The notes below the pieces were generated by a model. That model ran no database searches and was not told where the DNA came from. It worked only from the letters and a program-made list of their open reading frames with translations. A program made the translations under genes and the position numbers. 64,000 bases of DNA from Gemmatimonadales bacterium (lineage in GTDB: Bacteria > Gemmatimonadota > Gemmatimonadetes > Gemmatimonadales > GWC2-71-9), in contig DATNOR010000186.1 in the NCBI GenBank assembly GCA_035601235.1, forward strand, positions 279 to 64,278, written 5' to 3'. Positions 29,773 to 58,771 of the stretch are shown piece by piece (position 1 is the first letter of the stretch; each line of letters opens with the position of its first letter).

Positions 29773-30819
29773 GTGCTGATCGTGATGCGACACGGCGCGA
29801 CCGAGGAAGAAGTTCGGCGCGTGATCGCGGTGATCGAAGAGATGGGCTACAAGGCGCGGCCCATGCCGGGCGCGCAGCGCACCGCCGTGGGCCTGGTCGG
29901 CAACGACGGGCGGGTGGACGCGTCGCGCCTGGAAGGCCTCCCCGGTGTGCAGGACGTGATCCACGTCTCCAAGCCCTACAAGCAGGTGAGCCGCGAGTGG
30001 AAGAGCGAGAACACGGTGGTCCGGCTCGGGGGGGGCGGGGGGGTGACCGTGGGCGGGACCGAAGTCGTGACGATCGCGGGGCCGTGCTCGGTCGAGAGCG
30101 AGCGACAGATCATCGAAGCGGCCCGGCTCGTGAAGGACGCGGGCGCCGTGATTCTCCGGGGCGGCGCCTGGAAGCCGCGCACCTCGCCGTACGCGTTCCA
30201 GGGCCTGGGCCGACCCGGGCTCAAGCTCCTGGCCAAGGCGCGCGAGGAAACCGGTCTGCTGATCTGCACCGAGGCGATGGATCCCGACGGGATCGGCTAC
30301 GTCGCCGAAGTGGCCGACCTGATCCAGATCGGCGCCCGCAACATGCAGAATTTCTCGCTGCTCAAGATCGCGGGACGGGCCAAGAAGCCGGTGCTCTTGA
30401 AGCGCGGCATGTCCGCGACGATCGAGGAGCTGCTGTTGTCGGCCGAGTACCTGCTCGCCGAGGGGAATCACGACGTGATCCTGTGCGAGCGCGGCATCCG
30501 CGGGTTCGACACGGCCACCCGGAACGTGTTCGACCTCACCGCCATCCCCGTGGTGCACAAGCTGTCGCACCTGCCCATCATCGCCGATCCCTCGCACGGC
30601 ACGGGGCTGCGGGACAAGGTGATCCCCATGGCCCGCGCCGCGGTGGCCGCGGGAGCCGACGGGATCATGGTCGAGGTGCATCCCAATCCCGAGCAAGCTC
30701 TCTCGGACGGCGCGCAGACGCTCTATCCCGACCAGTTCGCCCAGCTGATGCGGGAAATCCGGGTGATCGCGGACGTGATCGGGAGGCGGGTGGCGGAGCC
30801 GGCGGGGGTGGGGGCGTGA
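29773..30819 (+). CDS. aroF: 3-deoxy-7-phosphoheptulonate (DAHP) synthase, type I-beta with an N-terminal regulatory domain
   Basis: [46 protein letters not shown]. Confidence 0.88.
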
Positions 30820-30821
30820 GC

Positions 30822-30941
30822 AACGCGGAACGCGGAACGCGGAACGCGGAGCAGAGGCGCAGGCATCCGGGGGAGAAGCCGAATCTGGCGCGCAGAATGG
30901 CGTACGTCTGTTCCGCGTTCCGCCTTCCGCGTTCCGCGTTC
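30822..30941. repeat. heptamer-armed palindromic element, copy A (~120 bp)
   Basis: Left arm (AACGCGG)x4 at 30822-30850, ~60-nt core, right arm TTCCGCG TTCCGCC TTCCGCG TTCCGCG at 30911-30938. The arms are complementary with 1 mismatch. Homologous to 45635..45753 in the opposite orientation. Confidence 0.8.
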
Positions 30942-31565
30942 GCGGCGATCGGCCTCTCCCTCGCGCTCCAATCCCCCGACCCCTGGCCGACCCTCGACCA
31001 CGCCGGCGCCGTCTACCAGACCATCACCAGCCTGTCGGCCGAGTTCACGCAGGTGGTGATCAATCCGATGCTCGGCGCGCCCGACACGACCCGCGGCCGG
31101 TTGTACCAGATGCGCCCCAGCCGCTTTGCCATGCGGTTCACCGATCCCAAAGGCGACCGGATCGTGGCGGACGGGCGCTTTCTCTGGCTCTACACGCCGA
31201 GTACTACGCCGGGCCAGGTGCTGCGCTCCCGCATCCCGGAGTACGGCTCGACCGGCCCCAACCTGATCGGACAGTTCGTCGAGCATCCCCGCGACCGCTA
31301 CACGGCGCGCTCCGTCCGGGCCGACTCGCTCCCGGACGGCGTGGCGGATGTCGTGGTGCTCGTGCCCAAGGCGGGCGACCAGCCCTACAGCGAGGTGACG
31401 ATCTGGGTGGGCCGTGACGACGGCCTGGTCCGCCGCCTCGACATCGTGGAGGCGTCGGGCCAGCGGCGCACGGTGCTGCTGCGGGACATCAAGGTGAACG
31501 GCGGCGTGCCGGGCCGCGAGCTCACGTTTTCGCCCCCGGCCGGAGTACGGGTGGTAGATCAGTAG
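30897..31565 (+). CDS. lolA: LolA-family outer-membrane lipoprotein carrier-like protein
   Basis: YQTITSLSAEFTQ...RGRLYQMRPSRFAMRF...DGRFLWLYTP follows the LolA pattern. ATG 30897 is the only ATG upstream of the mature domain and lies inside repeat copy A, so the start is uncertain. Confidence 0.6.
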   Translation: MAYVCSAFRLPRSAFAAIGLSLALQSPDPWPTLDHAGAVYQTITSLSAEFTQVVINPMLGAPDTTRGRLYQMRPSRFAMRFTDPKGDRIVADGRFLWLYTPSTTPGQVLRSRIPEYGSTGPNLIGQFVEHPRDRYTARSVRADSLPDGVADVVVLVPKAGDQPYSEVTIWVGRDDGLVRRLDIVEASGQRRTVLLRDIKVNGGVPGRELTFSPPAGVRVVDQ

Positions 31566-35010: not shown

Positions 35011-35924
35011 GCGCCCTCCTCGAGGATGGCCAGCACGTACCGCGCCCGGCCGAACAAGTCGTCGTGCACGTTCACCCGCGACCACGCCAGCTCGCGCGCG
35101 AGCCACGCGACACGCTCGGCGCGCCGCTCGTCCACCTCCAGCGCGAGCAGCCCGCCCGGCTCGAGCAGGCCGCGGGCGCCCGCGAGCAGGGCCCGCGTCG
35201 CGGCGAGCCCGTCCGGACCGCTCACCAACGCGTCGCGCGGCTCGAACAGCCGCACGGCCGGGTCGAGGCCCAGGTACTCGGCCTCGGTCAGGTACGGCGG
35301 GTTGGAGACGATGGCACGACACCGCTCGCCCGCGAGCGGGGTGAGCAGGTCGCCCTCGCGCACGTCGACCGGTACCGGCGGTCGCACCAGCGCGACGTTC
35401 TCGCGCGCCAACGCCGCGGCCTCCGCAGAGCGCTCGACCGCGATGACGCCCTCGAAGATGCCTTCGACGGCGAGCGATAACGCGATGCAGCCGCATCCGG
35501 TCCCGATGTCCGCCCCCACGCCACGTTTCCCGTTTCCCGTTTCCCCTTTCCCGACTTCCCGAAGTACCAGCTCGACCAGTCCCTCGGTCTCGGGTCGCGG
35601 AATCAGGGCGCGCGCGTCGAGCGTCAGATCGAGTGTGCGGAAGCCCACCCGGCCGACAGCGTACGCGAAGGGGACGCCGCTCGCACGCCGCTCTACGGCC
35701 CGATAGAACCGCTCTACCAGCGCCGCCGCGGCCTCCTGGTCGCGTTGCAACCACACGTCACCCGGTTTGGTCCCCGCACCGCGCACGGCTGCCCAGAGCA
35801 TCGTCGCTTCGCGCCGCGAGCGAGGCAGGCCGGCCGCTGCCAGGCGCTCGGCGGCGTCGTTCAGGGCAGCGCCGATCGAGCTCGGGTGCGCGGCAGGCTC
35901 AGGCACTGAGTCGCTCGTTCTCAC
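35007..35924 (-). CDS. prmC: release-factor glutamine N5-methyltransferase
   Basis: IVSNPPYL and DIGTGCGCIALSLA motifs. Directly downstream of prfA. Contains the heptamer array 35525..35560. Confidence 0.9.
   Translation of the reverse strand: MRTSDSVPEPAAHPSSIGAALNDAAERLAAAGLPRSRREATMLWAAVRGAGTKPGDVWLQRDQEAAAALVERFYRAVERRASGVPFAYAVGRVGFRTLDLTLDARALIPRPETEGLVELVLREVGKGETGNGKRGVGADIGTGCGCIALSLAVEGIFEGVIAVERSAEAAALARENVALVRPPVPVDVREGDLLTPLAGERCRAIVSNPPYLTEAEYLGLDPAVRLFEPRDALVSGPDGLAATRALLAGARGLLEPGGLLALEVDERRAERVAWLARELAWSRVNVHDDLFGRARYVLAILEEGA
35525..35560. repeat. tandem heptamer array (GTTTCCC)x3 plus two degenerate units, inside prmC
   Basis: Read directly. The coding strand is (GGGAAAC)n and encodes GKGETGNGKRG just before the SAM-binding GTG motif. 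Confidence 0.8.
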
Positions 35925-37339: not shown

Positions 37340-38011
37340 GTGTCGGTAACGGCCATCCTCCAGAAGGTGCCGCTGTTCAGCCAGTTGGCCACCACGGAGC
37401 TCGACCGGGTGGCCGAGATCACCCGCGAGCGCAGTTACCCCCGCAACTCCGTGATCCTGTTCGAAGACGACCCAGGGGACGCCCTGTACGTCGTGGCCAC
37501 CGGTCAGGTGAAGGTGGTGCTGATCGGCGAAGACGGGCGCGAGGTCATTCTGTCGGTCTTGGGGGAGGGCGACTTCTTCGGCGAGATGTCGCTCATCGAC
37601 GAGGAGCCCCGCTCGGCGCACGTGATCGCGATGGAGGACTCCAACCTCCTGGTGATCCGGCGCGAGGACTTTCAGGCCATCCTGCAGCAGTCGCCGGGCA
37701 TCGCGATGGGGCTGTTGCGCGAGCTGTCGCGCCGCCTGCGGCGCGTGGACGAGAAGGTCGGATCGCTGGTGCTGCTCGACGTGAACGGGCGCGTGGCGCA
37801 GCTGCTGCTCGATCTCGCCGACGAGGCTCGCTCCGACCGCATCACGCGCCGACTCACCCACCACACCATCGCGCAGATGATCGGGTCCTCCCGCGAGACG
37901 GTGAGCCGCACCATGCGCGAGCTGGTGGACAAGGGCTTCATCGAAATCAGCCGTCGCGAGATCCTGATTCGCGACCGCGCCGCGCTGGAAGCCTCAGCCG
38001 GACGGTCGTGA
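37340..38011 (+). CDS. Crp/Fnr-family transcriptional regulator with a cNMP-binding domain
   Basis: GTG 37340 follows AAGGGGA. GEGDFFGEMSLID...RSAHVIA (cNMP pocket). HTH IAQMIGSSRETVSRTMRELV keeps the R-E-x-x-x-R residues of E. coli CRP. Confidence 0.88.
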   Translation: MSVTAILQKVPLFSQLATTELDRVAEITRERSYPRNSVILFEDDPGDALYVVATGQVKVVLIGEDGREVILSVLGEGDFFGEMSLIDEEPRSAHVIAMEDSNLLVIRREDFQAILQQSPGIAMGLLRELSRRLRRVDEKVGSLVLLDVNGRVAQLLLDLADEARSDRITRRLTHHTIAQMIGSSRETVSRTMRELVDKGFIEISRREILIRDRAALEASAGRS

Positions 38012-38045
38012 GGTGCATCACCTCGTCGTGAGGTGCATCACCTCC
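38006..38045. promoter_or_regulatory. two tandem 20-bp repeats, each carrying cGTGA-ggtgca-TCACc
   Basis: TCGTGAGGTGCATCACCTC occurs twice (38006-38024, 38026-38044), and the first copy overlaps the crp-family stop codon. The box centres lie 41.5 and 61.5 nt upstream of the start implied by a TAACTT -10 at 38064-38069. Confidence 0.5.
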
Positions 38046-39011: not shown

Positions 39012-39716
39012 ATGCGTTCGCTAGGCATCGTCGTGTCGCTCGTGCTGTTGGCGCCCGTGGGAGCGGGGCTCTCCGCCCAGGGACGCGGTCAGGACACGCG
39101 GCCGGGCATCGCCGTCCTGCCGTTCGACAACAGCGGCTCCTACGGCCAGGACAAGGAGAACTTCGAGGCGCTCGAGAAGGGGATCGCCGGCATGATGATT
39201 TCCGAGCTGGCCGCGAACCCTTCGGCCCGGGTGGTGGAGCGCGAGCAGATCGAGAAGCTCATCGCGGAGCAAAACCTGGGCGCCTCGGGCAAGGTGACCC
39301 CGGAGACCGCCGCCAAGGTAGGGAAGCTGGTGGGCGCGCGGTATGTGATCACGGGCGCGTTCATCGATTTCTACGGCGACTTCCGCCTCGACGCGCGGAT
39401 GATCAACGTCGAGACGAGCGAGATCGTCAAGGTCGAATCCGACCGCATGCAGCGGGACCACCTGTTCGACCTGATTCGCAACGTGTCGGGGCGCCTGATG
39501 AAGGACGCCAACCTGCCGCCGCTCCCGAAGCAAGCCTCCGACCAGCGGATGGGCCGCCAGGTGCCGACCGAAGCGCTGACTTTCTACTCCAAAGCGCTGC
39601 TGTATCAGGACCGCGGGCAACGCGACAAGGCCGTCGAGATGTACCAGAAGGCGCTGGCCGTGTTCCCGGAGTACAGCGAAGCGCAGCAGGGGCTGCAGCG
39701 CGTCAAGACCTCGTGA
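39012..39716 (+). CDS. CsgG/LpoB-like periplasmic lipoprotein-fold protein with a C-terminal TPR-like segment
   Basis: Signal peptide. GIAVLPFDNSG...VVEREQIEKLIAEQNLGASGKV...AAKVGKLVGARYVITGAF follows the CsgG-family pattern. Confidence 0.55.
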   Translation: MRSLGIVVSLVLLAPVGAGLSAQGRGQDTRPGIAVLPFDNSGSYGQDKENFEALEKGIAGMMISELAANPSARVVEREQIEKLIAEQNLGASGKVTPETAAKVGKLVGARYVITGAFIDFYGDFRLDARMINVETSEIVKVESDRMQRDHLFDLIRNVSGRLMKDANLPPLPKQASDQRMGRQVPTEALTFYSKALLYQDRGQRDKAVEMYQKALAVFPEYSEAQQGLQRVKTS

Positions 39717-39749
39717 CGGCCGGGTGACCGGGCGCGCGGGCTCCACGCC

Positions 39750-41684
39750 ATGAGGTACTTGCTGCTGCACACCTCCGCGTGGGATCCGACCAGTGTCGGC
39801 CCCGCGCTCGAGCGCGCGCAGATCGAAACGCGCCCGGCGCGTCTGCCGCGGGACCTCGCGGTGGACGAGCGGCCGACCGTCTTCATGCTCGACTCCGAAA
39901 GCCGGTCCACGTTTCCACTCGATGTGTTGCGCGCCTTCGTCGACGCGGGGGGCGCGATCGTGGCCCTGGGCCGCAACGGCGAGGTGGACGTCCCGCCGGA
40001 GATGCCGGCCGAGCTGCTCTCGGGGTTCGTGCGCCAGCCGGTCGGCACCCGGCAGCTGCTGGTGGCGGTGCGGGCGGGGTATCGCGAGGCCGCCGCCCGC
40101 GTGGAGACCGCCCGGGCCCGGGCCGAGGCGGCGAGCCGCAGCCGCGAGATCGGCGAGCTCACCCGCATCGGCGTCGCGCTCGGCACCGAGCGCGACGTGA
40201 AGTCCCTGCTCGACCTCATCCTCACGCAGGCACGCCGCATCACGTCCTCCGACGCGGGCAGCCTCTACCTCGTGGAAACGGGCGATCAGGGTCAGAAGCG
40301 CCTGCGCTTCCGGCTGGCCCAAACCTATTCCAAGCCGGAAGCGCCGTTCATCGAGTTCACGATACCCGTCGACCGCTCGAGCCTCGCAGGCTACGCCGCC
40401 GTGACGGGTGAGCCGCTCGTGATCGACGACGCGTACTTCCTGCCGCCCGACGTGGAGTACAGCATCAACCGCTCGTTCGACGAGCGGTACGGCTACCGCA
40501 CCAAGTCCATGCTGGTCATCCCCATGAAGGATCATAAGGAAGACGTGATCGGGGTGCTGCAGCTGATCAACCGCAAGCGCAACCCCGAAGCGGTGCTCGC
40601 GACGCCCGCGGACGTCGAGGCACAGGTCGTGCCGTACTCGAAGCGCACGGTGGAGCTGGTCACCGCGCTCGCCGGCCAGGCGGCGGTCGCCATCGAAAAC
40701 AGCCGCCTGTACGAGGAGATCGAGCGCCTGTTCGAGGGGTTCGTGAAGGCGGCCGTGCACGCGATCGAGCAGCGCGATCCGACCACCTTCGGCCACTCGG
40801 GGCGGGTCGCCAACATGACCGTGGGCCTCGCCGTCGTGGTGGACCGCGCCGGCGACGGCGCCTACCAGGGTGTGCGTTTCACGCGCGAGCAGATCCGCGA
40901 GCTCCGCTACGCCGGACTGCTGCACGACTTCGGGAAGGTGGGCGTACGCGAGCAGGTGCTCGTCAAAGCGAAGAAGCTGTATCCGCTGCAGCTGGAGCTC
41001 ATTCGGCAGCGCCACGACTTCGTGCGGCGCACGGCGGAGCGGGAGTTCTGGCGCCGACGCGCCGAGTTTCTCGAGGCGCACGGACGCCAGGGGTACGAAG
41101 AGTTTCTCACGCGGCTCGCGGCCGAGCACGCCGGCGAGATCGAAACGCTGGACCGCTTTCTGAACGCCGTGCTGCGGGCGAACGAGCCGACGGTCCTGCC
41201 GGCGGAGCGGTTCGAGGAGCTGCTCTCCGTGGCCCGCTGCACCTATGAGGATCTGTCCGGCGAGCTGCGCCCCTACCTGAGCGACGAGGAGATGCGCTAC
41301 CTCACGATTCCCAAAGGGTCGCTCGACGAGAGCGAGCGGCTGGAGATCGAGAGCCACGTCACCAACACCTACCGCTTCCTGCAGCAAATCCCCTGGACCC
41401 GCGAGCTGCAGCACGTGCCCCTGATCGCGTACGGGCACCACGAAAAGCTCGACGGCGGAGGCTATCCCCGCCGTGTGACGGGTGAGGCGATCCCGATTCA
41501 GACCCGCATGATGACGATCAGCGACATCTACGACGCGCTCACCGCCGCCGACCGCCCCTACAAGTCCGCGGTGGCGCCCGCGCGGGCGCTCGACATCATG
41601 GTCGAGGAGGTGCGCGCCGGCCAGCTCGACCAGGAACTGTTCCGGCTGTTCGTGGATGCCAAGGTGTTCGAGGCGAACACCTAG
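39750..41684 (+). CDS. HD-GYP phosphodiesterase with a receiver-like N-terminus and a GAF domain
   Basis: GLLHDFGKVGV (HD) and HHEKLDGGGYPRR (GYP). GAF-like block SDAGSLYLVE...SMLVIPM...VIGVLQLINRK. Confidence 0.85.
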   Translation: MRYLLLHTSAWDPTSVGPALERAQIETRPARLPRDLAVDERPTVFMLDSESRSTFPLDVLRAFVDAGGAIVALGRNGEVDVPPEMPAELLSGFVRQPVGTRQLLVAVRAGYREAAARVETARARAEAASRSREIGELTRIGVALGTERDVKSLLDLILTQARRITSSDAGSLYLVETGDQGQKRLRFRLAQTYSKPEAPFIEFTIPVDRSSLAGYAAVTGEPLVIDDAYFLPPDVEYSINRSFDERYGYRTKSMLVIPMKDHKEDVIGVLQLINRKRNPEAVLATPADVEAQVVPYSKRTVELVTALAGQAAVAIENSRLYEEIERLFEGFVKAAVHAIEQRDPTTFGHSGRVANMTVGLAVVVDRAGDGAYQGVRFTREQIRELRYAGLLHDFGKVGVREQVLVKAKKLYPLQLELIRQRHDFVRRTAEREFWRRRAEFLEAHGRQGYEEFLTRLAAEHAGEIETLDRFLNAVLRANEPTVLPAERFEELLSVARCTYEDLSGELRPYLSDEEMRYLTIPKGSLDESERLEIESHVTNTYRFLQQIPWTRELQHVPLIAYGHHEKLDGGGYPRRVTGEAIPIQTRMMTISDIYDALTAADRPYKSAVAPARALDIMVEEVRAGQLDQELFRLFVDAKVFEANT

Positions 41685-42037
41685 CGAATCAGCAGCCGGA
41701 CCGCCACGATCATCAGGAACACGCCGAACGCCCGCTGCAGCGTGGCGTCGGACAGCCTCCCCGCCAGGGTGGCGCCGAGCAGGGCGCCGACGAACAGCCC
41801 CACCGCAATGACGCCCGCGTACGGGACGTTCACCTGGCCGCGTCGGTAGTACTCCCACGCCCCGAGCAAGCCGACGGGGAGTAGCAGCGCCGCGAGCGAC
41901 GTGCCGTTCGCGGTGTGCTGGGGCAGCTTGGCGACGAGCACCAGCCCCGGGATGATCACGATCGCTCCGCCCACGCCGAACAGGCCCGACACCACACCGG
42001 CCACGAGACCGATCAGCGCCACGAGCACCCACATCAT
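41681..42037 (-). CDS. half-size TSUP (TauE/SafE) family membrane protein
   Basis: 118 aa with about 4 TM segments. GLFGVGGAIVIIP motif. ATGA overlap with the hyuB stop. Confidence 0.7.
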   Translation of the reverse strand: MMWVLVALIGLVAGVVSGLFGVGGAIVIIPGLVLVAKLPQHTANGTSLAALLLPVGLLGAWEYYRRGQVNVPYAGVIAVGLFVGALLGATLAGRLSDATLQRAFGVFLMIVAVRLLIR

Positions 42038-43587
42038 CGCTCGCCTCCTGGTTCAGGTTGTCCCCATCCGCCCCCGCCCGGTGTCTCGATGCGGACCACG
42101 TCGCCGGCCGCGAGTCGTGTGCTCACCTTGGACGGGAGCGGGGCCCCGTTCACGAGCGTACGCCCGGGAGCGCCCGCGCCGCCGCCACCGACTCCGCACG
42201 GGGCGTGGCGCCGCCGCTCCGCGAGAACGCTCGCGTCCATCGGGGCGAGCGCTTCGAATTCCCGAATCACGCCGTCCCCGCCCGACCACCGCCCAACCCC
42301 GCCGCTGCCCCGTCGTAAGCCGTACGCCTTGAGCCGCAAGGGATACTCCATCTCGAGCACCTCGACCGGCGTGTTCCGCGTGTTCGACATCCCCACGTGC
42401 ACGCCCGACGGTCCGTGAGCGCCGGAGCTCGCCCCCTGGCCACCCCCGATCGTCTCATAGTAGGTCCAGCCGGTTTCGAGCCCCGAGTCCCGAACCCCGA
42501 GTCCCCCGAACGTCACGTTGTTCATTGTGCCCTGCCCCTGCGCCGGGACCGGGAGACTGCCGGTCGCGAGCGCCCGGAACACCGTGTCCGCGATGCGCTG
42601 CGACGTCTCGACGTTCCCCGCCGCCACGGCACTGGGGAAGCGGGCATGCACGAGGCAGCCCTCGGGCGCCGTGACCCGCACGACCCGGGTCACGCCGCCG
42701 TTCGTCGGCACGTCCTCAGGCAACAGCGTGCGCACCACGAACAGCACCGCCGAGCGCGCCACGGCGAGCGGGCAGTTGACGTTGCCGTGCGCGGCAGGGG
42801 CGGTGCCGGTGAAATCCGCGTGGAACATGCCGTCCCGGATGTCCACGCGGACGCGAATCGCCAGGTCTCGGTCGTCGACGCCGTCGCCTTCCAGCCAGTC
42901 GGTCGCGGTGAGCCCGGTCGCCTCGAAGCGTGCCAGGGCCTCGCGGGCGCGCCGCTCGGCGTACGCCTGGAGGTCGCGGGCGGCGTCGCACAGCGCGGCC
43001 CAGCCGTGGCGCGCCGCGAGCGCCCGTAGCCCGTCGGCGCCGCGCTCCACGGCGGCGCGCTGGGCCGCGAGATCGGCGCGGCGCGCCTCGGGGGTGCGGA
43101 CGTTCGCGAGCAGGAAGCGCTCGACCTCCGGCGTGAGCCGCAGCGGCGGCACCACCACCCCCTCCGCAAAGATCTCGCGCGCGCCCGCGGGCATGCTCCC
43201 CGCCTGCATCCCGCCCACGTCGGAATGGTGCGCGCGCACCACGCCATAGCCGCCCACCGCGCCCTCCACCTCCACGGCACCGACGAGCGTGATGTCCGGG
43301 AGGTGCGACCCGCCGGCGTAGGGATCGTTCAAGATGAAGACGTCGCCTGGCGCGGGGGCCAGGGCCCGCACGGCCGCGACGGACTCATGCAGCGCGCCCA
43401 GATGTACGGGAATGTGGGCCGCCTGAGCGATCATCTCGCCGGCGGCGTCGAACAGCGCCGCGGAGCAGTCACGTCGCTCCCGGATGTTGGGGGAGACGGC
43501 CGAGTGAATCAGCACGAGCCCCATCTCCTCCGCGATGGAGGCGAAGGCATGCCCCATCACCTCGAGGCCCACCGCGTCGAGGCTCAT
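42034..43587 (-). CDS. hyuB: hydantoinase B / oxoprolinase family protein
   Basis: ATG 43587 overlaps the hyuA stop (ATGA). SPNIRERRDCSAALFD, ILNDPYAGGSHLPD, YYETIGGGQGA. Confidence 0.9.
   Translation of the reverse strand: MSLDAVGLEVMGHAFASIAEEMGLVLIHSAVSPNIRERRDCSAALFDAAGEMIAQAAHIPVHLGALHESVAAVRALAPAPGDVFILNDPYAGGSHLPDITLVGAVEVEGAVGGYGVVRAHHSDVGGMQAGSMPAGAREIFAEGVVVPPLRLTPEVERFLLANVRTPEARRADLAAQRAAVERGADGLRALAARHGWAALCDAARDLQAYAERRAREALARFEATGLTATDWLEGDGVDDRDLAIRVRVDIRDGMFHADFTGTAPAAHGNVNCPLAVARSAVLFVVRTLLPEDVPTNGGVTRVVRVTAPEGCLVHARFPSAVAAGNVETSQRIADTVFRALATGSLPVPAQGQGTMNNVTFGGLGVRDSGLETGWTYYETIGGGQGASSGAHGPSGVHVGMSNTRNTPVEVLEMEYPLRLKAYGLRRGSGGVGRWSGGDGVIREFEALAPMDASVLAERRRHAPCGVGGGGAGAPGRTLVNGAPLPSKVSTRLAAGDVVRIETPGGGGWGQPEPGGER
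42477..42510. repeat. heptamer array CGAGCCC CGAGTCC CGAACCC CGAGTCC, inside hyuB
   Basis: Read directly. The coding strand is G-rich (GGACTCG/GGGTTCG units) and encodes GGLGVRDSGLETG between the conserved FGG and YYET blocks. Confidence 0.7.
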
Positions 43588-45608
43588 GTGCGCGCCAGCA
43601 GCACCGCGCCCGAGGGGTGCACGGTGCCACACCAGCCGGGCTCCACGAGGGCGGTCGCGTCGCCGCCGGCCAGGATCGCCGGACCCTGCAGCGTCACTCC
43701 CGTGGCGAGCTGGTCGAGCGCCCACACCGAGCCGGTGATCCGCTCCCCACGCACGACGAAAGGACGCCGTCCCAGCGGGCGTCGCCCACTGCGGTGTTCG
43801 CCCGCGAAGCGCGGCAGCGGTCCCTCGCGCAGCACCACGACGCGCAGGTTCACAATCTCGACCGCCAGGCCGCCCCCGTGTCCGTAGCGCGCGCGGTGTG
43901 CCGCCACGAAGGCGGCACGAATCCGCTCGGGCTCGTCTCCTTCGACCGGGACCGTCACCTCGTAGCCCTGTCCCGCGAAGCGACAGTCAGCATAACGGAG
44001 CAGCGCCGCGCCGGGGATCTGGCGAGCACCCTCCGCGACGATCGGTGCGAAGGCTTGGGCCAGCGCCCGCGGCTCGAGGCCGTCCACGGGACGGTGAAAC
44101 GATGCGAGCAGATCGGCCCGCTCGGGCGCCGACGCGAGCCCCAGCGCGGACAGCGCTCCGGGATGCGGCGGGATGACGATCGTGCCCATCCCCAGCGCTT
44201 CGGCCAGCTGGCAGCCGAACAGCGCCCCCGCGCCCCCGAACGGCAACAGCGTCATGCGGCGCGGGTCGAGGCCACGCGCGACGCTCACCCGCTTCAGGGC
44301 GCGCGCCATCACGGCACCGGCGACCGCGACGACTCCAGCGGCGACCCGTGCGGCGTCGCTCCCGACCGTGGGGCCGAGCCGGCGCAGGGCCCGCTCGGCG
44401 GCGCGAGGGTCGAGCCGCACGCCGTCGGCGAGCGGGCTGTCCGCGTCGAGCCATCCCAGCGCGACACAGGCATCGGTCACGGTGGGTCGCTCGCCGCCGC
44501 GCCCGTAGCACGCCGGCCCCGGCACCGCTCCGGCGCTCTCCGGCCCGACGCGCAGGGCGCCACCCTCGTCCAGGCGCGCGATGCTGCCGCCGCCCGCGCT
44601 CACGGTCTCGATCAGCACCGCCGGCAAGGCGAGCGGGACGCCGCCGACGCTGCCCGCACCGTTGGCGAGCGGAGCACCCCCGACCACGAGGCTCGCGTCG
44701 GCGCTCGTGCCGCCCATGTCCAGGGTGAGCAGATCCGAGAGGCCCACGGCGGCGCCGATCAGACGGGCCCCGACCACACCACCCGCGGGGCCCGAGAGCG
44801 CGAGCGATGCCGCGTGCGCGGCGGCGGCGGCGGGCGTGCGCGTGCCCCCGCTCGACGTCATCACCCGCAGCGCGCCGATCGCGCGCTCGCGCAGGCCGCC
44901 GTCCAGCCGCTCGATGTAGGTCGAGACCCTGGGACGGAGGTATGCTTCGACGGTGGTCGTGCTGGTGCGCTCGAACTCACGAAACGCGGGGAGCACCTCG
45001 TGGCTCGCCGCGACCGCCACGCGCGGCAGCGCGTCGCGCAGGGCGGCGGCGAGCCGCCGCTCGTGCGTCGGGTCGCGAAACGCGAACAGCAGCGCGATGG
45101 CGACGGCTTCCGGGGCGAGCCCCCGCACAGCGGCGACCACGCGCGCGACCTCCCCCTCCGTGAGCGGCTCGAGCACCCCGGCTGGGCCGATGCGCTCCGC
45201 GACCCCCACCACGTCTCCCCGGGCGACGAGCGGTGGCGGGTGGTCGCGCGCCAGGTCGTAGAGCGCGGCGCGGTCCTGCCGGCGCAGCCACAGCAAGTCC
45301 TCGAATCCCCGGGTGGTGACGAGCACCACGCGGGCGCCGCGCCGCTCGAGCAGCACGTTGGTCGCGATGGTTGTACCGTGGATCAGCATGTCTATGGGGA
45401 CGGGGGACGAGGGAAGAGGGACGGGTGGGGATGTCGCCGCACTCGTCCCCCGTCCCTCGTCCCTCGTCTCCAGCGTATCTAGCGCCCGAAACATCCCGAC
45501 CGCCGGGTCCTCCGGCGTAGTGGCGACCTTACGGACCTCGATCGCGCCGTCGGGCGTGAGCGCGACCAGGTCGGTGAACGTTCCCCCCACATCCACCCCG
45601 ACCCTCAC
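43584..45608 (-). CDS. hyuA: hydantoinase A / oxoprolinase family protein
   Basis: GTG 45608 gives VRVGVDVGGTFTDLV. HGTTIATNVLLERRG. Contains the hairpin insertion 45396..45471. Confidence 0.9.
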   Translation of the reverse strand: MRVGVDVGGTFTDLVALTPDGAIEVRKVATTPEDPAVGMFRALDTLETRDEGRGTSAATSPPVPLPSSPVPIDMLIHGTTIATNVLLERRGARVVLVTTRGFEDLLWLRRQDRAALYDLARDHPPPLVARGDVVGVAERIGPAGVLEPLTEGEVARVVAAVRGLAPEAVAIALLFAFRDPTHERRLAAALRDALPRVAVAASHEVLPAFREFERTSTTTVEAYLRPRVSTYIERLDGGLRERAIGALRVMTSSGGTRTPAAAAAHAASLALSGPAGGVVGARLIGAAVGLSDLLTLDMGGTSADASLVVGGAPLANGAGSVGGVPLALPAVLIETVSAGGGSIARLDEGGALRVGPESAGAVPGPACYGRGGERPTVTDACVALGWLDADSPLADGVRLDPRAAERALRRLGPTVGSDAARVAAGVVAVAGAVMARALKRVSVARGLDPRRMTLLPFGGAGALFGCQLAEALGMGTIVIPPHPGALSALGLASAPERADLLASFHRPVDGLEPRALAQAFAPIVAEGARQIPGAALLRYADCRFAGQGYEVTVPVEGDEPERIRAAFVAAHRARYGHGGGLAVEIVNLRVVVLREGPLPRFAGEHRSGRRPLGRRPFVVRGERITGSVWALDQLATGVTLQGPAILAGGDATALVEPGWCGTVHPSGAVLLART
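45396..45471. repeat. heptamer hairpin (GGGGACG-type arms) inserted in frame in hyuA
   Basis: Left arm GGGGACG GGGGACG AGGGAAG AGGGACG, ~15-nt loop, right arm CTCGTCC CCCGTCC CTCGTCC CTCGTCT. Encodes roughly ETRDEGRGTSAATSPPVPLPSSPVP. Confidence 0.8.
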
Positions 45609-45634: not shown

Positions 45635-45753
45635 AACGCCGAACGCGGAAGGCGGAACGCGGAACAGAGCGTACCCAGTTCGTTCGCCCAACCTCGTGTC
45701 CGGGATCGAACTCCGCGCGATCTGTTCCGCATTCCGCGTTCCGCGTTCCGCGT
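45635..45753. repeat. heptamer-armed palindromic element, copy B (~120 bp)
   Basis: AACGCCG AACGCGG AAGGCGG AACGCGG ... TTCCGCA TTCCGCG TTCCGCG TTCCGCG. Its reverse complement aligns with copy A over both arms and the arm-proximal core. Lies between the lnt stop (45757) and the hyuA start (45608). Confidence 0.8.
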
Positions 45754-45756
45754 TTC

Positions 45757-47292
45757 TCACGCGCTCCGTCTCCAGTGCAGCACCGCCAGCGCCCCGGCGA
45801 ACCCCAAGGTCGCGAGCACACAGAGCGTTCCCACCCAATCTCCCAGCCGCACGTACGGCGGGATCACGTCGCTCGAGCGCAGCCGGCCGGAGACCGCCGC
45901 TTCGACCTCGAGACCGGTGGCCGCGTAGGTCTGGCCCAGCGGATCAACGAACTCGGAGATGCCGTCGTTCGCGGCGCGGGCGATCCCCGTCCGCGTCTCG
46001 ATCGCCCGCATCACGAGGTGCGTGGCGTGTTGATAGGGACCGGCGGTGCGGCCGTACCAGGCGTCGTTAGTGATGTTCACGAGAAAGTCGGCGCCCGCCG
46101 CGCGATAGCGGCGCGCCAGATCTTCGAACGCCGACTCGTAGCAGATGACCACCCCGAAGCGTCCCAAGGGACTGGGGTAGAGCGGCAAGGTGGACCCCGG
46201 CGAGAACCCGCCGGACCAGTTTCCCAGACCGGGGACGCTGCGAAACAGGCGCACCGGGACGAATGGGACCCGCTCGACCACGGGCACGAGATAGTGCTTG
46301 CCGTACACGGGATACGCCCGCCACTGGCCGGTCGAATCGTAGAAAAAGGCGGCGTTGTAGTAGGCGTCCCGCGTCACCGCATGCAGACCTCCCGTGAGGA
46401 TCGGCGTGTGCCGCTCGCGCGCCAGTGCGGCGATCTGTGCGTCCCACGTCGGCGTCTCCGCCAGCCAGCCGGGCACGGCGGCCTCGGGCCACACGAGGAG
46501 GTCGAGCCGGCCGCCGGACTCGAGCTGGCGCGACAGGCTGAGCAGCTTCGCCACGACGCTGTCGGCGTGCGCAGGATCCCATTTTTCGTGGAAGCCCTCG
46601 TTCGGCTGCACCAGGCCGACCGTGCCCAGCTCGCGCAGCGGCAGTGTGCGCGTGCGCCAGGCACCGTAGGCCCAGGCCGCGACGACCGTCGCGAGCACGG
46701 CAATCACCGGTCGCCACCGAATCGAGCCTCTTCCCACCGCGTCCACGATCATCACGTTGCACCAGGCGAGCCACAACGTCACTCCACGCGCGCCGGCGAG
46801 GTCGGCCCATTGCACGAGCACGGGCGCGTCGCCGAGCGACGTGCCCAGCCCGAGCCAGGGAAACCGGATATCTCCCTGATGTCCCACCGCCCATTCGACG
46901 GCGGTCCAGGCGAGCGGAAACACGAGGGCGAGCGGCACCGCCGGGAGGCGGCGGCGCACGCGCAGCACGAACCAGAAGAGCAGGCCGTGCCACAGTCCGA
47001 AGATGGCGATCGTGGCGAGGTAGCCGAGGGCCGACAACGGCGTAAAATGCCACAGCGCGACGACCAGCCAATACAGGACGGCTCCCTGCGTCACGAAGCC
47101 GTACGCGAATCCCCAGCGCAACGCGTCGCGCGGGTGGCACTCCTGCTCCAGCCGGCGCAGCAGCACGACCGCCGGGGCGACCGCGACGAAGCTCAGCAGG
47201 GGAAGGCGAAAGGGAGGGTAGCTGGCGACGAGGAGGGCGGCGCCGATCGCGATCAGCGCCGCGGACCGCCGGCTCGCCGGGGGGAGGGTCAC
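45757..47292 (-). CDS. lnt: apolipoprotein N-acyltransferase
   Basis: Multi-TM N-terminus plus a CN-hydrolase domain (LVWPE, ICYESAF, NDAWYG). Confidence 0.9.
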   Translation of the reverse strand: MTLPPASRRSAALIAIGAALLVASYPPFRLPLLSFVAVAPAVVLLRRLEQECHPRDALRWGFAYGFVTQGAVLYWLVVALWHFTPLSALGYLATIAIFGLWHGLLFWFVLRVRRRLPAVPLALVFPLAWTAVEWAVGHQGDIRFPWLGLGTSLGDAPVLVQWADLAGARGVTLWLAWCNVMIVDAVGRGSIRWRPVIAVLATVVAAWAYGAWRTRTLPLRELGTVGLVQPNEGFHEKWDPAHADSVVAKLLSLSRQLESGGRLDLLVWPEAAVPGWLAETPTWDAQIAALARERHTPILTGGLHAVTRDAYYNAAFFYDSTGQWRAYPVYGKHYLVPVVERVPFVPVRLFRSVPGLGNWSGGFSPGSTLPLYPSPLGRFGVVICYESAFEDLARRYRAAGADFLVNITNDAWYGRTAGPYQHATHLVMRAIETRTGIARAANDGISEFVDPLGQTYAATGLEVEAAVSGRLRSSDVIPPYVRLGDWVGTLCVLATLGFAGALAVLHWRRSA

Positions 47293-48296
47293 AGCAGCAC
47301 GTCACGTCCTTCGTCGGCAGACCGATAGACGGCCTCGAGCACGCGGTGCAGGGCCAGCTGGTCGCGCGGCGGGGGCGCGTTCACGTCACCCTTGATGACC
47401 GCCAGGAAATACGTCCATTCGGCGCGGTAGGATTGCGCGAACGCAGTCTCCCGCCCGCTCGCGCCGGTCGGCGTCACGTCGCTTACGTTACCGTGGATCT
47501 CCTTGAAGATGCGCAGCGGCTGCACGCTGGCCGACCCTTTCGTCCCCACCAGGTCGAACCAGAAGCGCTCGGCCTCCCCCATGTGGCGCCAGCTCACGTC
47601 GATCGACAGCGACACCCCGTTCTCGCACACCACGAGCGCCGTCGCCATGTCCTCCACGCCGTCCTTCGATGGTCGGATGGCATGCGCGGCGACGCGCTTG
47701 GCGGCGGGCCAGCCCGCGAGCCACAGGCCGAGGTCGAGCAGCTGGAGCCCGAGGTCGAGAAACGCGCCGCCCCCCGCCTCCTGGCGCCGCAGCCGCCAGC
47801 CGATGACCTGGCGGCTCGGTTGGAACGTGTACCAGCCGCCCCGGATCGCCTGCAGCACGCCGATGTCGCCGCCCGCCAGGAACCCCCGTACCGCCTGCAC
47901 GTCCGAGCGGAACCGGTGGTTCATGCCCACCATGACGCGCTTGCCGTATTTCTCGCTCGCCTGCAGCACCCGCTCGACGCCCGCCAGGGTGAGCGCGAGC
48001 GGGCGCTCGCACAGCACATGCACCCCCGCCGCGAGCGCCGAGACGACATGGATCTCGTGCAGGTGGTTGGGCGTGCAGATCGCCACCGCGTCCGCGCGGG
48101 CGTACTTGAGTACCTCTTCGATGTCGTCGAACGTCTCCTTGACTTCGAACCGGGCCGCCAGGGCCTGCGCCTTGCTGAGATCGTTGTCGCAGATCGCCGC
48201 CACCTCGACGCCGGGGAGCCGCCGCAACGACGGCAAATGGGCGACCTGCGCGATCGCTCCTGCGCCAACGACGGCGATGCGGATCGGGTCGCTCAC
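47289..48296 (-). CDS. Gfo/Idh/MocA-family oxidoreductase
   Basis: IRIAVVGAGAIAQVAHLPSL Rossmann N-terminus and EKPLA-like CERPLAL motif. Confidence 0.88.
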   Translation of the reverse strand: MSDPIRIAVVGAGAIAQVAHLPSLRRLPGVEVAAICDNDLSKAQALAARFEVKETFDDIEEVLKYARADAVAICTPNHLHEIHVVSALAAGVHVLCERPLALTLAGVERVLQASEKYGKRVMVGMNHRFRSDVQAVRGFLAGGDIGVLQAIRGGWYTFQPSRQVIGWRLRRQEAGGGAFLDLGLQLLDLGLWLAGWPAAKRVAAHAIRPSKDGVEDMATALVVCENGVSLSIDVSWRHMGEAERFWFDLVGTKGSASVQPLRIFKEIHGNVSDVTPTGASGRETAFAQSYRAEWTYFLAVIKGDVNAPPPRDQLALHRVLEAVYRSADEGRDVLL

Positions 48297-48970
48297 TTCC
48301 CGGCCCAGCGATACATGACGCCCGAGCGGAGCGACGCGGTCGAGAGCCCGCTCGAGAGCACGCCGCGCGCCTCGAGCGTGAAGCGCCAGCGTTTGGCGCC
48401 GAATTCAGCGCCGACCGTGCCGTTCAACCCGGCCGTGATCTCGTTCAGGGCGTCCTGCACGAAGGTGCCGTTGATGGCAGCGCCGCTGCCGTGACGGAAG
48501 TGGGCGCCGAGCCCGATCCCCATGTAGGCCGTGACCGCGTGCCCCTGCGGGAGCACGTACTGCAAGTCCACATCGCCGGTCACGTCGCTCCAGGTAATGC
48601 CGCCCAGCTTGATGGTATCGTCGCCCGAGGGATCGACCACGACGCTCTTGAGGCGCTGCTCGAAGCGCGCGCGGGCGGCCGACCCGAAGTCGGCCTTGAA
48701 GTAGGACACGCCGAGCAGCACGCGCACGTGCGGCGCGATGAACCCGTAGTCGAGCCGCACGCCGCCGGTGAACGCACCCCGGATGTTGTTGCCGCCGAGC
48801 GGCCCGACGTCGAGCTGGAGCGCACTGGGCTTCAGGTTGTCGTAGGAGAACTGGGAGAGCAGACCTTGGGCGGACAGGCGGACAGGCGGACTGACGGACA
48901 GCAGCAGCGCGAGCAGACCGACCGCCCGTCCGCCCCTCCGCGCGACCGCCTTAATAGAGGCGCTCGACAT
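48293..48970 (-). CDS. putative outer-membrane beta-barrel protein
   Basis: ATG 48970 gives the signal peptide ...GLLALLLSVSPPVRLSAQ. Alternating beta-strand pattern. Aromatic-rich C-terminal stretch ...GVMYRWAGK. Confidence 0.5.
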   Translation of the reverse strand: MSSASIKAVARRGGRAVGLLALLLSVSPPVRLSAQGLLSQFSYDNLKPSALQLDVGPLGGNNIRGAFTGGVRLDYGFIAPHVRVLLGVSYFKADFGSAARARFEQRLKSVVVDPSGDDTIKLGGITWSDVTGDVDLQYVLPQGHAVTAYMGIGLGAHFRHGSGAAINGTFVQDALNEITAGLNGTVGAEFGAKRWRFTLEARGVLSSGLSTASLRSGVMYRWAGK

Positions 48971-56833: not shown

Positions 56834-56868
56834 AGGGATCAGGGGTCAGGGGTCGGGTGCCAGGGTGT
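56834..56868. repeat. heptamer array AGGGATC AGGGGTC AGGGGTC GGGTGCC AGGGTGT filling an intergenic spacer
   Basis: Read directly. It occupies essentially all of the 37 nt between the stop at 56868-70 and the aldh ATG at 56830. Confidence 0.75.
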
Positions 56869-57377
56869 CAGCGCTTCGGCGCCAACGTAGGCGGTGACAC
56901 GTCGGGGCAGAGCCAGAGCGCGGCCGCGTGGCTGCCGACGCGCGGCAGGACTTCCCGTGTCATCAGGAGGATGCCCCAGACGATGAGGCCCTGCGCGATC
57001 ACATGGGCGAAGCCGAGGCGTCGTTTCCAGGACGAGAGGCTGGCCCACACGCCCGCGGCCACCACGGTGGTCACGCCCAGGAGATAGAAGATCAGCCGCA
57101 ACCCGCAGCCGTGCGAATACGGCCAGACGCCGGGGGCGACCCCGATGCCGACGAGCACGCCGAGCGCCACCTTGGCCCACGTGCCGAGTCGCCCGGAGCC
57201 GCTCGGGGGTGCGACGCCGCCGCGCGGCGTCACCGTGGAGAGCGACGGCTTTTTGGCGGTCGGCTCGTAGCCAGCCCGGCGGCCCAGCGTCGGGTCCGCG
57301 TCGGGGAGCTTCTTGAGCAGCCGGTCGACCTCGGCCATCTCTTTGTCCCAGTCCCGCTCTTTATCGCTTCCCGCCAC
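56868..57377 (-). CDS. hypothetical membrane protein (charged N-terminus plus 3-4 TM segments)
   Basis: The GTG start overlaps the activator stop by 1 nt. Hydrophobic spans VALGVLVGIGVA, LIFYLLGVTTVVAAGVWA, GLIVWGILLM. Confidence 0.5.
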   Translation of the reverse strand: MAGSDKERDWDKEMAEVDRLLKKLPDADPTLGRRAGYEPTAKKPSLSTVTPRGGVAPPSGSGRLGTWAKVALGVLVGIGVAPGVWPYSHGCGLRLIFYLLGVTTVVAAGVWASLSSWKRRLGFAHVIAQGLIVWGILLMTREVLPRVGSHAAALWLCPDVSPPTLAPKR

Positions 57378-58771
57378 TACGCCCCCCCGTCCCGCGCCAG
57401 CCGGTAGCGCTCGATCTTCTTGTAGAGATTACTGCGCGGCATATCCAATGTGCGCGCCGTCTCCGACACATTCCAGTCGTTTTCCTGCAGCTTGGCGAGG
57501 ATGTAGGTCCGCTCCGCCACCTGCTTGAACTCCTCGAACGTCGCCGCCCGCATCCACGGCGCCGCGGACACGTCGACGGGCCCCGTCCCCCGTCCCCCGT
57601 CCCCCGTCCCGACGCCCGCGATCCGCTCCACATCCGATACGGTGACCGTCGGACCGGGGGCGAGAATGAGGAGGCGCTCGACGGCATTGCGCAGCTCGCG
57701 GATGTTGCCGGGCCAGTCGTACGCGGCGAGCCGTTTCAGGGCGTCGGGGTCGACGCCCTTGGCCTGGAGCCCGCCGCGCTCGGTCAAGCGAGCGGTGAAG
57801 TGCTCGACCAGCTGCGGCACGTCGGCCCGGCGGGCGCGCAGCGGCGGCACCTCGATCGGCACGACGTTGAGCCGGTAGAGCAGATCCTCCCGGAACCGAC
57901 CCGCGGCGATTTCGGCGCGCAGATCCTTGTTGGTGGCAGCGACGACCCGCACGTCCACCGCCAGCGTCTTGCCCGACCCCACGCGGGAGATGACGGCCTC
58001 CTCCAGCGCGCGCAGCACCTTGGCCTGGGCCGAGAGGCTCATGTCGCCGACCTCGTCGAGGAACAGCGTTCCTCCATCGGCCAGCTCGAACTTGCCGGCG
58101 CGGTCGGCGAATGCGCCGGTGAAGCTGCCCTTCATGTGCCCGAACAGCTCGCTCTCGATCAGCTCCGTCGGGATCGCCGCGCAGTTCACCTCCACGAACG
58201 GCTGGTCGGCGCGGGGGGAGAGCGTATGGATGGCGCGGGCGACGAGCTCCTTGCCGGTGCCGTTTTCGCCGGTGATGAGGACGCGCGCCGCGGTCGGCGC
58301 CACCTTCTCGATGCGCTCGATCACACCCTTCACGGCCCGGCTCGAGCCCACGATCTCGTACTGGGCGTGCACCTCGGCTTTGAGCCGCACGTTCTCGCTG
58401 GCGAGGTCCACGTGCTCGAGGGCGTTGCGCAGCGTGAGGAGGATGCGGTCCGTGTCGAGCGGCTTCTCGAGGAAGTCGTAGGCGCCGAGCTGGGTCGCTT
58501 CGACGGCGGTCTGGATGGTGCCGTGGCCCGAAATCATCACGACCTGCGCGCGCGAGTCGAGCTCGCGCAGCTTGCGCAGCGTCTCGAGGCCGTCCATGCC
58601 CTGCATCTTCACGTCGAGCAACACGAGGTGGGGCCGGAACTCGGGGTAGAGGCTCAGCGCCTCGGCGCCGGAGACGCACGCCCGCACGTCGATGTCCTCG
58701 TACTCGAGCAGCTGGGTCAGGGCTTCACGGATGCCCTTCTCGTCGTCCACGACCAGGACCCGCCGGCTCAC
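57377..58771 (-). CDS. sigma-54-dependent response regulator (REC - AAA+ - Fis-type HTH)
   Basis: VLVVDDE...LLDVKM receiver. GENGTGKE Walker A. GAFTGA-like GSFTGA. ESELFGH. C-terminal ARTLDMPRSNLYKKI HTH. Confidence 0.92.
   Translation of the reverse strand: MSRRVLVVDDEKGIREALTQLLEYEDIDVRACVSGAEALSLYPEFRPHLVLLDVKMQGMDGLETLRKLRELDSRAQVVMISGHGTIQTAVEATQLGAYDFLEKPLDTDRILLTLRNALEHVDLASENVRLKAEVHAQYEIVGSSRAVKGVIERIEKVAPTAARVLITGENGTGKELVARAIHTLSPRADQPFVEVNCAAIPTELIESELFGHMKGSFTGAFADRAGKFELADGGTLFLDEVGDMSLSAQAKVLRALEEAVISRVGSGKTLAVDVRVVAATNKDLRAEIAAGRFREDLLYRLNVVPIEVPPLRARRADVPQLVEHFTARLTERGGLQAKGVDPDALKRLAAYDWPGNIRELRNAVERLLILAPGPTVTVSDVERIAGVGTGDGGRGTGPVDVSAAPWMRAATFEEFKQVAERTYILAKLQENDWNVSETARTLDMPRSNLYKKIERYRLARDGGA
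57581..57608. repeat. four perfect CCCCGTC heptamers inside the activator gene
   Basis: Read directly. The coding strand is (GACGGGG)4, encoding GVGTGDGGRGTGPV in the linker between the AAA+ and HTH domains. Same unit as the hyuA hairpin arms. Confidence 0.85.

Follow-up and report, generated by a model that had tools for sequence, protein, structure and literature searches.

A palindrome of inverted heptamer arrays at the aroF–lolA junction of Gemmatimonadales is translated into the LolA signal peptide and may maintain itself in place

That heptamer repeats are over-represented in bacteria has been known since 2007, but to our knowledge they have hardly been studied. The cyanobacterial STRR heptanucleotide repeats were reportedly described by Mazel et al. 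in 1990. The RPEs of Rickettsia, attributed to Ogata et al. in 2000, are said to be palindromic repeats tolerated in frame within genes at permissive surface positions and to form families with a conserved consensus of about 100–150 bp. In chloroplast DNA, minute hairpin-loop inversions, in which the loops between short inverted repeats flip recurrently, were reportedly described by Kelchner and Wendel in 1996, while quasipalindrome template switching in E. coli, as studied by Ripley and by the Lovett laboratory, is said to correct imperfect arms toward perfect complementarity. Both are mutational phenomena and not a named class of elements, and they do not concern tandem heptamers.

The closest known counterparts of the locus analysed here are the inverted pairs of the GGGAATC heptamer in Xanthomonas, followed by the cyanobacterial STRR and the TAACTGA repeats. 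Rehm et al. (2015, PMC4692102) give 70–75 cases per genome of close arrays of one unit on opposite strands, for which a stem-loop or a cruciform is possible; they lie mostly at gene borders, and their type (single or inverted pair) is kept among related species while the lengths vary. The TAACTGA repeats of Beggiatoa and cyanobacteria are mostly single direct arrays, with one inverted case in 169 sets (MacGregor 2015, PMC4679880). REPINs and BIMEs, according to Bertels and Rainey (2011, PMC3116915) and Di Nocera (2013, PMC3733652), consist of inverted arms and a spacer forming a hairpin of about 100–120 nt between genes, and mRNA-level roles have been proposed for them.

The window analysed here is a 64,000-nucleotide stretch of a Gemmatimonadales contig, the features of which are collected in Table 1. 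A preliminary description of this DNA had pointed to a palindrome with (AACGCGG)4 arms behind the DAHP synthase stop codon, and this structure, called element A below, is real. Its left arm starts 2 nt past the aroF TGA, and the inverted-repeat finder gives two arms of 34 nt (30822–30855 and 30907–30940) that are 94% complementary and 51 nt apart. TRF resolves them into arrays of 4.1 and 4.6 copies with 100% and 92% matches, respectively, the right array (30910–30941) having the unit GTTCCGC. The 14-mer AACGCGGAACGCGG, which represents two units, occurs 14 times in the window with at most two mismatches, against 2.6 ± 1.7 in shuffled sequence (14 is reached in 0 of 100 shuffles), and 12 of these matches fall within element A and copy B. 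The segment 30816–30950 folds as RNA at −84.3 kcal/mol, as compared to −58.7 ± 4.2 for shuffles (z −6.1; 0 of 200), and as DNA at −51.3 kcal/mol (z −6.3).

Table 1. Positions of the repeat elements and associated genes in the window
Feature	Position	Strand	Remarks
aroF-type DAHP synthase gene	29773..30819	+	TGA 30817-30819; ORF; Pfam DAHP_synth_1 1e-79 and DAHP_snth_FXD
GTG overlapping aroF stop (GTGA)	30816..30818	+	in frame with lolA across the whole element; candidate (ancestral) lolA start
lolA	30816..31565	+	long form 249 aa; short form from ATG 30897, 222 aa
left arm, element A	30822..30855	+	(AACGCGG)x4 at 30822-30849 plus AGCAGA extension
core (loop), element A, 51 nt	30856..30906	+	hypervariable among orthologs; holds ATG 30897, the alternative lolA start
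right arm, element A	30907..30941	+	TCTGTT plus (CCGCGTT-type)x4.6; reads CSAFRLPRSAF
single array (GGAAACG)x4	35524..35553	-	in frame in prmC, just ahead of methyltransferase motif I
period 7/14 array (GGGACTC/GGGGTTC)	42477..42505	-	in frame in hyuB
GGGGACG/GGGACGA heptamer palindrome, 78 nt	45395..45472	-	in frame in hyuA, loop of Hydant_A_N domain; -57.4 kcal/mol, z -7.0
copy B, AACGCGG palindrome	45635..45754	-	intergenic, between lnt stop TGA 45757-45759 and hyuA start GTG 45611
octamer (GGCGGACN) palindrome	48869..48950	-	encodes signal peptide of a 225-aa protein (gene 48293-48970, ATG 48970)
array (AGGGGTC)x5	56834..56871		directly upstream of aldehyde dehydrogenase start (ATG 56830, minus strand)
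single array (GGGGACG)x4	57581..57610	-	in frame, linker of sigma-54 activator

Element A is one of many period-7 and period-8 repeat palindromes in this Gemmatimonadales genome. The arrays of the window were listed by TRF, each was inspected, and the host genes were placed by Pfam; a strict detector finds six period-7 arrays in the window versus none in simulated sequence, and none at periods 8–12. The second copy reported earlier was confirmed as copy B, with arms at 45635–45665 and 45724–45754 built of the same heptamer and a fold of −85.6 kcal/mol on the minus (transcribed) strand (z −8.9). Its supposed opposite orientation holds for the loop only: the core of copy B bears a weak likeness to core A that is higher for the reverse complement (z 3.2; 0 of 500 shuffles) than for the forward sequence (z 2.2), whereas both copies read alike relative to the flanking genes.

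The palindromes located inside genes show the same architecture. In hyuA, the spacing from DVGGTFTD to HGTT is 71 aa in the window versus 47–52 in homologs free of the insert, and the loop of the homologs has either no insert (47–52 residues) or palindromes of assorted heptamers (55–76 residues). The palindrome at 48869–48950 represents a complete signal peptide, in which the left arm encodes RRGGRAVG, the core LLALLL and the right arm SVSPPVRLSAQ; this site is filled in five lineages, and its signal-peptide layout is shared by the octamer lolA alleles L140, L172 and L181.

Like the Xanthomonas type, element A combines an array of at least three copies of a 7-nt unit with a nearby opposite-strand array able to pair with it, and period-7 arrays are in excess over other periods both in the window and in 817 kb elsewhere. 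Unlike that type, AACGCGG contains at most two consecutive G and cannot form a G-quadruplex, although the GGGGACG and AGGGGTC arrays of the window have G-tracts; element A also differs in residing in Gemmatimonadales and in being translated in a signal peptide. With the STRR and TAACTGA repeats it shares the period-7 unit, the over-representation of heptamers, the frequent placement just upstream of starts and the patchy distribution across phyla, but those repeats belong to AT-richer genomes and are not known to be translated or to make up conserved palindromes. New with respect to the known heptamer repeats are the GCGG-type unit family, the different phyla, the translated copies and an allele series exposing the dynamics.

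This series was obtained by a metagenome scan with the mature LolA domain as the query, which yielded 80 loci with 79–100% identity; 77 of them were parsed, giving 62 distinct junctions. The palindrome is present at the aroF–lolA site in 59 of the 62, and its unit differs by lineage: AACGCGG, AATGCGG/AGTGCGG, ATTGCGG, or octamers such as GATAGGCG and GGGCGGAC. The junction of L115 is identical to that of the window, and in L032 (Gemmatimonadetes AG20, about 89% identical) the element occupies the matching place with conserved arms and a core that is about half identical. Because one and the same site carries different units and a hypervariable core that can be inverted, the earlier notion of a discrete 120-bp element had to be abandoned; a single conserved 120-bp family is rejected as well, since the cores differ between sites and between alleles. 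The element is dispensable at this junction. It is absent in L151, L177 and L187 (the last being a deletion remnant), and partial losses comprise 21 nt of the left arm in L141/143 and 21 nt of the right arm in L154; the losses occur sometimes in 21-nt and sometimes in other in-frame steps. In the ±4-kb flanks of 67 ortholog loci, almost no arrays were found apart from the junction.

In the 22-kb syntenic loci, which were fetched via the HD-GYP gene, site B is filled in all lineages with AACGCGG or ATTGCGG units, and at site C (the second signal peptide) there are GGCGGNNN octamers whose sequences differ. The filling of sites A and B in all syntenic relatives by lineage-specific units of equal length and register indicates descent in place and not repeated insertion. 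It bears on the view that element A is a non-autonomous mobile element (MITE, REPIN or RPE-like), the arms of which would be terminal inverted repeats for a transposase such as RAYT, with A and B as two insertions. This view is suggested by the shared unit and weakly similar cores of two copies located 15 kb apart, by a geometry like that of a REPIN, with a spacer between two inverted arms and an overall length of about 120 nt, by the identity of a 21-mer across many phyla, and by in-frame gene insertions that recall the Rickettsia RPEs.

Several features nevertheless speak against mobility. MITEs share the inverted arms, but no target-site duplication flanks A or B, none is seen in the filled L178 versus the empty L177, and there is no conserved internal sequence: cores are 35–58% identical among orthologous alleles and unrelated between sites. 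REP arms are imperfect palindromes of 20–40 nt with a GTAG/CGTC tag, one sequence genome-wide and a RAYT transposase, whereas the arms of element A are direct heptamer arrays that are not individually palindromic and have no GTAG/CGTC at either end. Only two AACGCGG copies occur per 64 kb, together with many other units, and no transposase was called in the 22-kb loci. Like RPEs, the heptamer palindromes are inserted in frame in ORFs (the lolA N-terminus, the hyuA loop, leuS of L111), but they have the architecture alone in common and no family consensus sequence. As had been supposed from the outset, no named REP, BIME, MITE or RPE family fits, and the Rfam scan of the whole window gave no matches at the family gathering score. 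A transposon-like origin of element A is poorly supported, and we consider it improbable.

Sites A and B of one genome show no co-variation in unit type: L195–197 combine octamers at site A with AACGCGG at site B, and L205 combines TTGGAAGG with ATTGCGG. This makes a single trans-acting recogniser per genome unlikely, and the idea of one genome-specific unit type was rejected on the same mixtures. It also weakens the proposal of a binding-site array for a protein that reads a motif every 7–8 nt, either a CsrA-like GGA binder on RNA or a DNA binder at every third unit (21 bp, two helical turns). In its favour, GCGG is present in all left-arm units at the lolA site and GGA in most of them, and GGA/TCC is the most over-represented trinucleotide among 43 other (non-seed) heptamer units from L001–L114 (19 observed vs 11 expected); binding of S1, Csp or CsrA has been proposed for the TAACTGA repeats upstream of start codons (MacGregor 2015, PMC4679880). 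However, this enrichment is modest, GGA is absent from some units (GGCGGGTA, AGGGGTC), many units coexist per genome, and the sites would be sequestered by the inverted partner. We regard such an array as very improbable.

The behaviour of the arms was analysed in an almost gapless alignment (A2) of 29 alleles of 160–165 nt. In the hairpin register, 89.2% of the cells pair, versus 28–52% when the partner is slid by 1–3 columns. The arms co-vary: both-side changes were found in 61 cells against 24.8 ± 3.9 after shuffling (0 of 500), while the number of pairs with a both-side change (11) is not above that in shuffles (9.3 ± 1.4; 105 of 500). The variable arm positions are bases 2 and 3 of A-N-N-GCGG and their partners. 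Among the unpaired cells, G.U exceeds A.C (44 vs 26), while by column they are equal (10 vs 10), which gives no clear sign of selection on the sense RNA over DNA-level upkeep of pairing. Between alleles, the arms are 62–97% and the core 35–58% identical, whatever the identity of the flanks (80–99%).

The loop inverts at both sites. At site A, the core of L126 (129-nt class) matches that of L160 (135-nt class) at 28 of 30 positions as the reverse complement and at 20 of 30 forward; at site B, the window core matches L199 at 56 of 64 and 40 of 64 positions, respectively. Whole alleles are also replaced. L115 and L117 are 98–99% identical over about 8 kb and have different units in the element: 65 of the 72 differences in L115 3500–4400 fall within 3845–3999, where the divergence is about 42% over 155 nt, and this interval comprises the element plus 37 nt for the hydrophobic part (h-region) of the signal peptide. 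The L117 allele resembles alleles of other lineages at the aroF–lolA locus and, judging by these sequences, the divergence looks like allelic exchange and not hypermutation limited to the palindrome. For the Xanthomonas repeats, the passages of PMC4692102 consulted do not describe unit turnover accompanied by arm co-variation, inversion of the loop or replacement of alleles, all of which are demonstrated for element A.

The right arm is translated. It keeps a single reading frame across all 62 distinct junctions (SAFRxPxSAF, SAIRNPQSAI, SALRIPHSAL), which bears out its earlier placement in the LolA signal-peptide region. Changes of its copy number are 21-nt steps (three units, seven codons), and exact 21-nt differences are seen in the right arm (135 vs 114 nt; P0063, P0118), the left arm (164 vs 143) and the core (165 vs 144). 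The long form of lolA matches Pfam LolA at 1.9e-21 over residues 69–231; lolA has 2223 homologs. That the element donates the lolA start, as the preliminary description proposed, is uncertain: no in-frame ATG other than 30897 precedes the LolA domain, but GTG 30816, which is also in the lolA frame, had been overlooked. The element-free alleles L151 and L177 use the GTG overlapping the aroF stop (MKKPIAAIG..., MKQVVLAVG...) and have a plain signal peptide MKKPIAAIGIFLGL...; in L032/L137, the closest same-type ortholog, an ATG at the overlapping position is the only start, and ATG 30897 is not conserved. The start overlapping the aroF stop is the conserved one, and it is used by public gene calls (P0001).

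Three solutions for the lolA start can be distinguished among the alleles. The first is a GTG, ATG or TTG overlapping the aroF stop and in frame throughout the element (classes 162, 129, 135, 144, 165, 126 and 99); the second is an ATG directly after the left arm in ATTGCGG-type alleles of the 164-nt class, where a mini-ORF runs from GTGA over the left arm to ATGA before the lolA ATG; the third is an ATG within an AATGCGG unit. In L118–L121 and L161, the aroF frame continues across the left arm and ends behind it, where its stop codon overlaps the TTG start of lolA; the C-terminus of aroF there is the left-arm-encoded ...EQVRNAECGVRS in place of the normal ...EPAGVGA.

Taken as a whole, element A is best read as a resident structure of two inverted arrays with one short unit and a free core, and not as a transposed copy of a fixed sequence. 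We suggest, with a probability of roughly 0.55, that it is a self-maintaining repeat palindrome tolerated in the signal-peptide N-region, which probably gates lolA translation by an mRNA hairpin. Slippage would homogenise the units inside one arm; the lasting complementarity of the two arms and the flipping of the loop would come from template switching or gene conversion between them; and homologous recombination would swap whole alleles among strains. At about 30 bp, the arms are short for recombination of the RecA type. We infer such DNA-level maintenance by analogy, the mechanism for the arms being assumed to carry over from quasipalindrome template switching in E. coli and minute hairpin inversions in chloroplasts.

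At the protein level, the element may have been absorbed into the lolA 5' end, where it would provide the signal peptide with its Arg-rich N-region in front of the hydrophobic AAIGLSLAL segment, and it would persist owing to a permissive place that the host can absorb. Tolerance in coding sequence is supported by the one-frame right arm, by the in-frame indels, and by the similar in-frame palindromes in hyuA, another signal peptide and leuS. As to the mRNA, a very stable hairpin in the aroF–lolA transcript would begin 2 nt past the aroF stop, and the lolA start (GTG 30816 or ATG 30897) would probably be reachable only when ribosomes finishing aroF open it, which would represent translational coupling. 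We infer this gating from the sequence layout: the hairpin begins 2 nt past the aroF TGA, and each start codon is located either at its foot or within its loop.

Several observations weigh against self-maintenance. The occupancy of 59 of 62 junctions over 79–100% LolA identity could also mean functional selection, the excess of G.U cells, although mild, leans to RNA pairing, and the preference for a 7-nt, sometimes 8-nt, unit across phyla is not accounted for. The high occupancy of the site makes a selected RNA role a serious rival. The structure in the aroF–lolA transcript would then provide REP/BIME-like protection against 3'-exonucleases, attenuation of read-through, or a gate setting the LolA level. 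Besides the occupancy, it agrees with the great stability of the fold (−84 kcal/mol, z −6), with the both-side changes that preserve pairing, with the prevalence of G.U over A.C cells, and with the mini-ORF of the 164-nt class, the GTGA→ATGA arrangement of which resembles a termination–reinitiation relay. It agrees also with the position of the left arm, which at sites A, B and C (the window, L195–L205) starts 0–3 nt past the upstream stop codon in every lineage examined.

On the other hand, the hairpin is not a canonical terminator, since it has neither a U-tract nor a short loop: the scan for intrinsic terminators in 30500–31300 gave no terminator-like sites, and the right arm is followed by TCGCGGCGATC. 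A canonical promoter was not found at element A either. The hairpin belongs to no Rfam family, otherwise similar genomes can lose one arm or the entire element, like palindromes lie in the coding sequence of protein loops and linkers, for which a regulatory role of the RNA is hardly to be expected, loop flipping is a DNA event, and the G.U excess vanishes when counted by column. We therefore regard a selected RNA structure as a possible but rather doubtful explanation.

Further copies, expected from the preliminary description, do exist beyond the palindromes of the orthologous junctions. The exact 21-mer (AACGCGG)3 was found in the GTDB species set in more than 114 contigs among the matches listed, and the hosts among these matches include Gemmatimonadota, Verrucomicrobiota, Planctomycetota, Acidobacteriota, Chloroflexota and Streptomyces isolates. 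Period 7 is specific: 817 kb of those contigs contain 191 period-7 arrays (63 with other units) versus at most 10 at any of periods 5, 6, 8, 9 and 10, and 55% of the arrays in these 817 kb have an inverted partner within 220 nt. In L111 (about 3669–3775), an AACGCGG palindrome lies in frame in leuS, between ...FAVAEAGD and AIPVFTTRPDT. At the end of a Streptomyces calvus scaffold (L017, 302–560), adjacent heptamer arrays of CCGGATG, CCCGCAC and AACGCGG (x5) are found near the contig end. Carriage by phages was rejected, since only two matches occur among 2.9 million viral contigs.

Such a distribution might indicate that heptamer and octamer palindromes form a distinct multi-phylum class, created and renewed by a dedicated mechanism of 7–8-nt register and wired into gene starts as hairpin-gated translational couplers and even signal-peptide cassettes. 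In a cassette of this kind, the left arm would give the Arg/Gly-rich N-region, the core the hydrophobic region and the right arm the cleavage region, and this layout is present at the octamer lolA alleles and at 48869–48950 of the window. We consider the existence of such a class unlikely.

The aroF–lolA locus represents a natural series of more than 60 alleles that shows how a palindrome behaves over time, including unit turnover with paired arms, loop flips and exchange between near-identical genomes. The neighbouring genes adjust their reading frames to its presence: lolA starts in three different ways, and one lineage has an aroF end that involves the left arm. Stable DNA palindromes can be carried in essential coding regions, such as signal peptides, LeuRS and enzyme loops. 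This matters for gene calling in metagenomes of high GC content, in which N-termini are frequently set wrongly, for the tolerance of genomes to non-B DNA, and for tests of hairpin-gated translational coupling.

Some minor features of the region may also be recorded. A variable insertion of about 1.1–1.2 kb follows directly after the lolA stop in L032 (3641–4810), L199 (561–1654) and L200 (588–1681), and it is absent from the window at about 31565; it contains an HTH_17 gene and a gene for a 270-aa membrane-like protein, and its boundary in L032 is an AT-rich stretch in which AATGTTTA motifs recur. In L205, a rhodanese gene follows the lolA stop, and L115 and L117 differ there by about 2.3 kb, so that this spot looks like a small integration hot spot. 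The 1003-aa ORF at 39021–42032 (minus strand) was judged to be a spurious antisense frame, the real gene being that for the HD-GYP protein at 39750–41684. Finally, positions 38005–38044 of the window hold a perfect 20-nt tandem duplication (GTCGTGAGGTGCATCACCTC x2), the unit of which contains the inverted repeat GAGGTGCATCACCTC.
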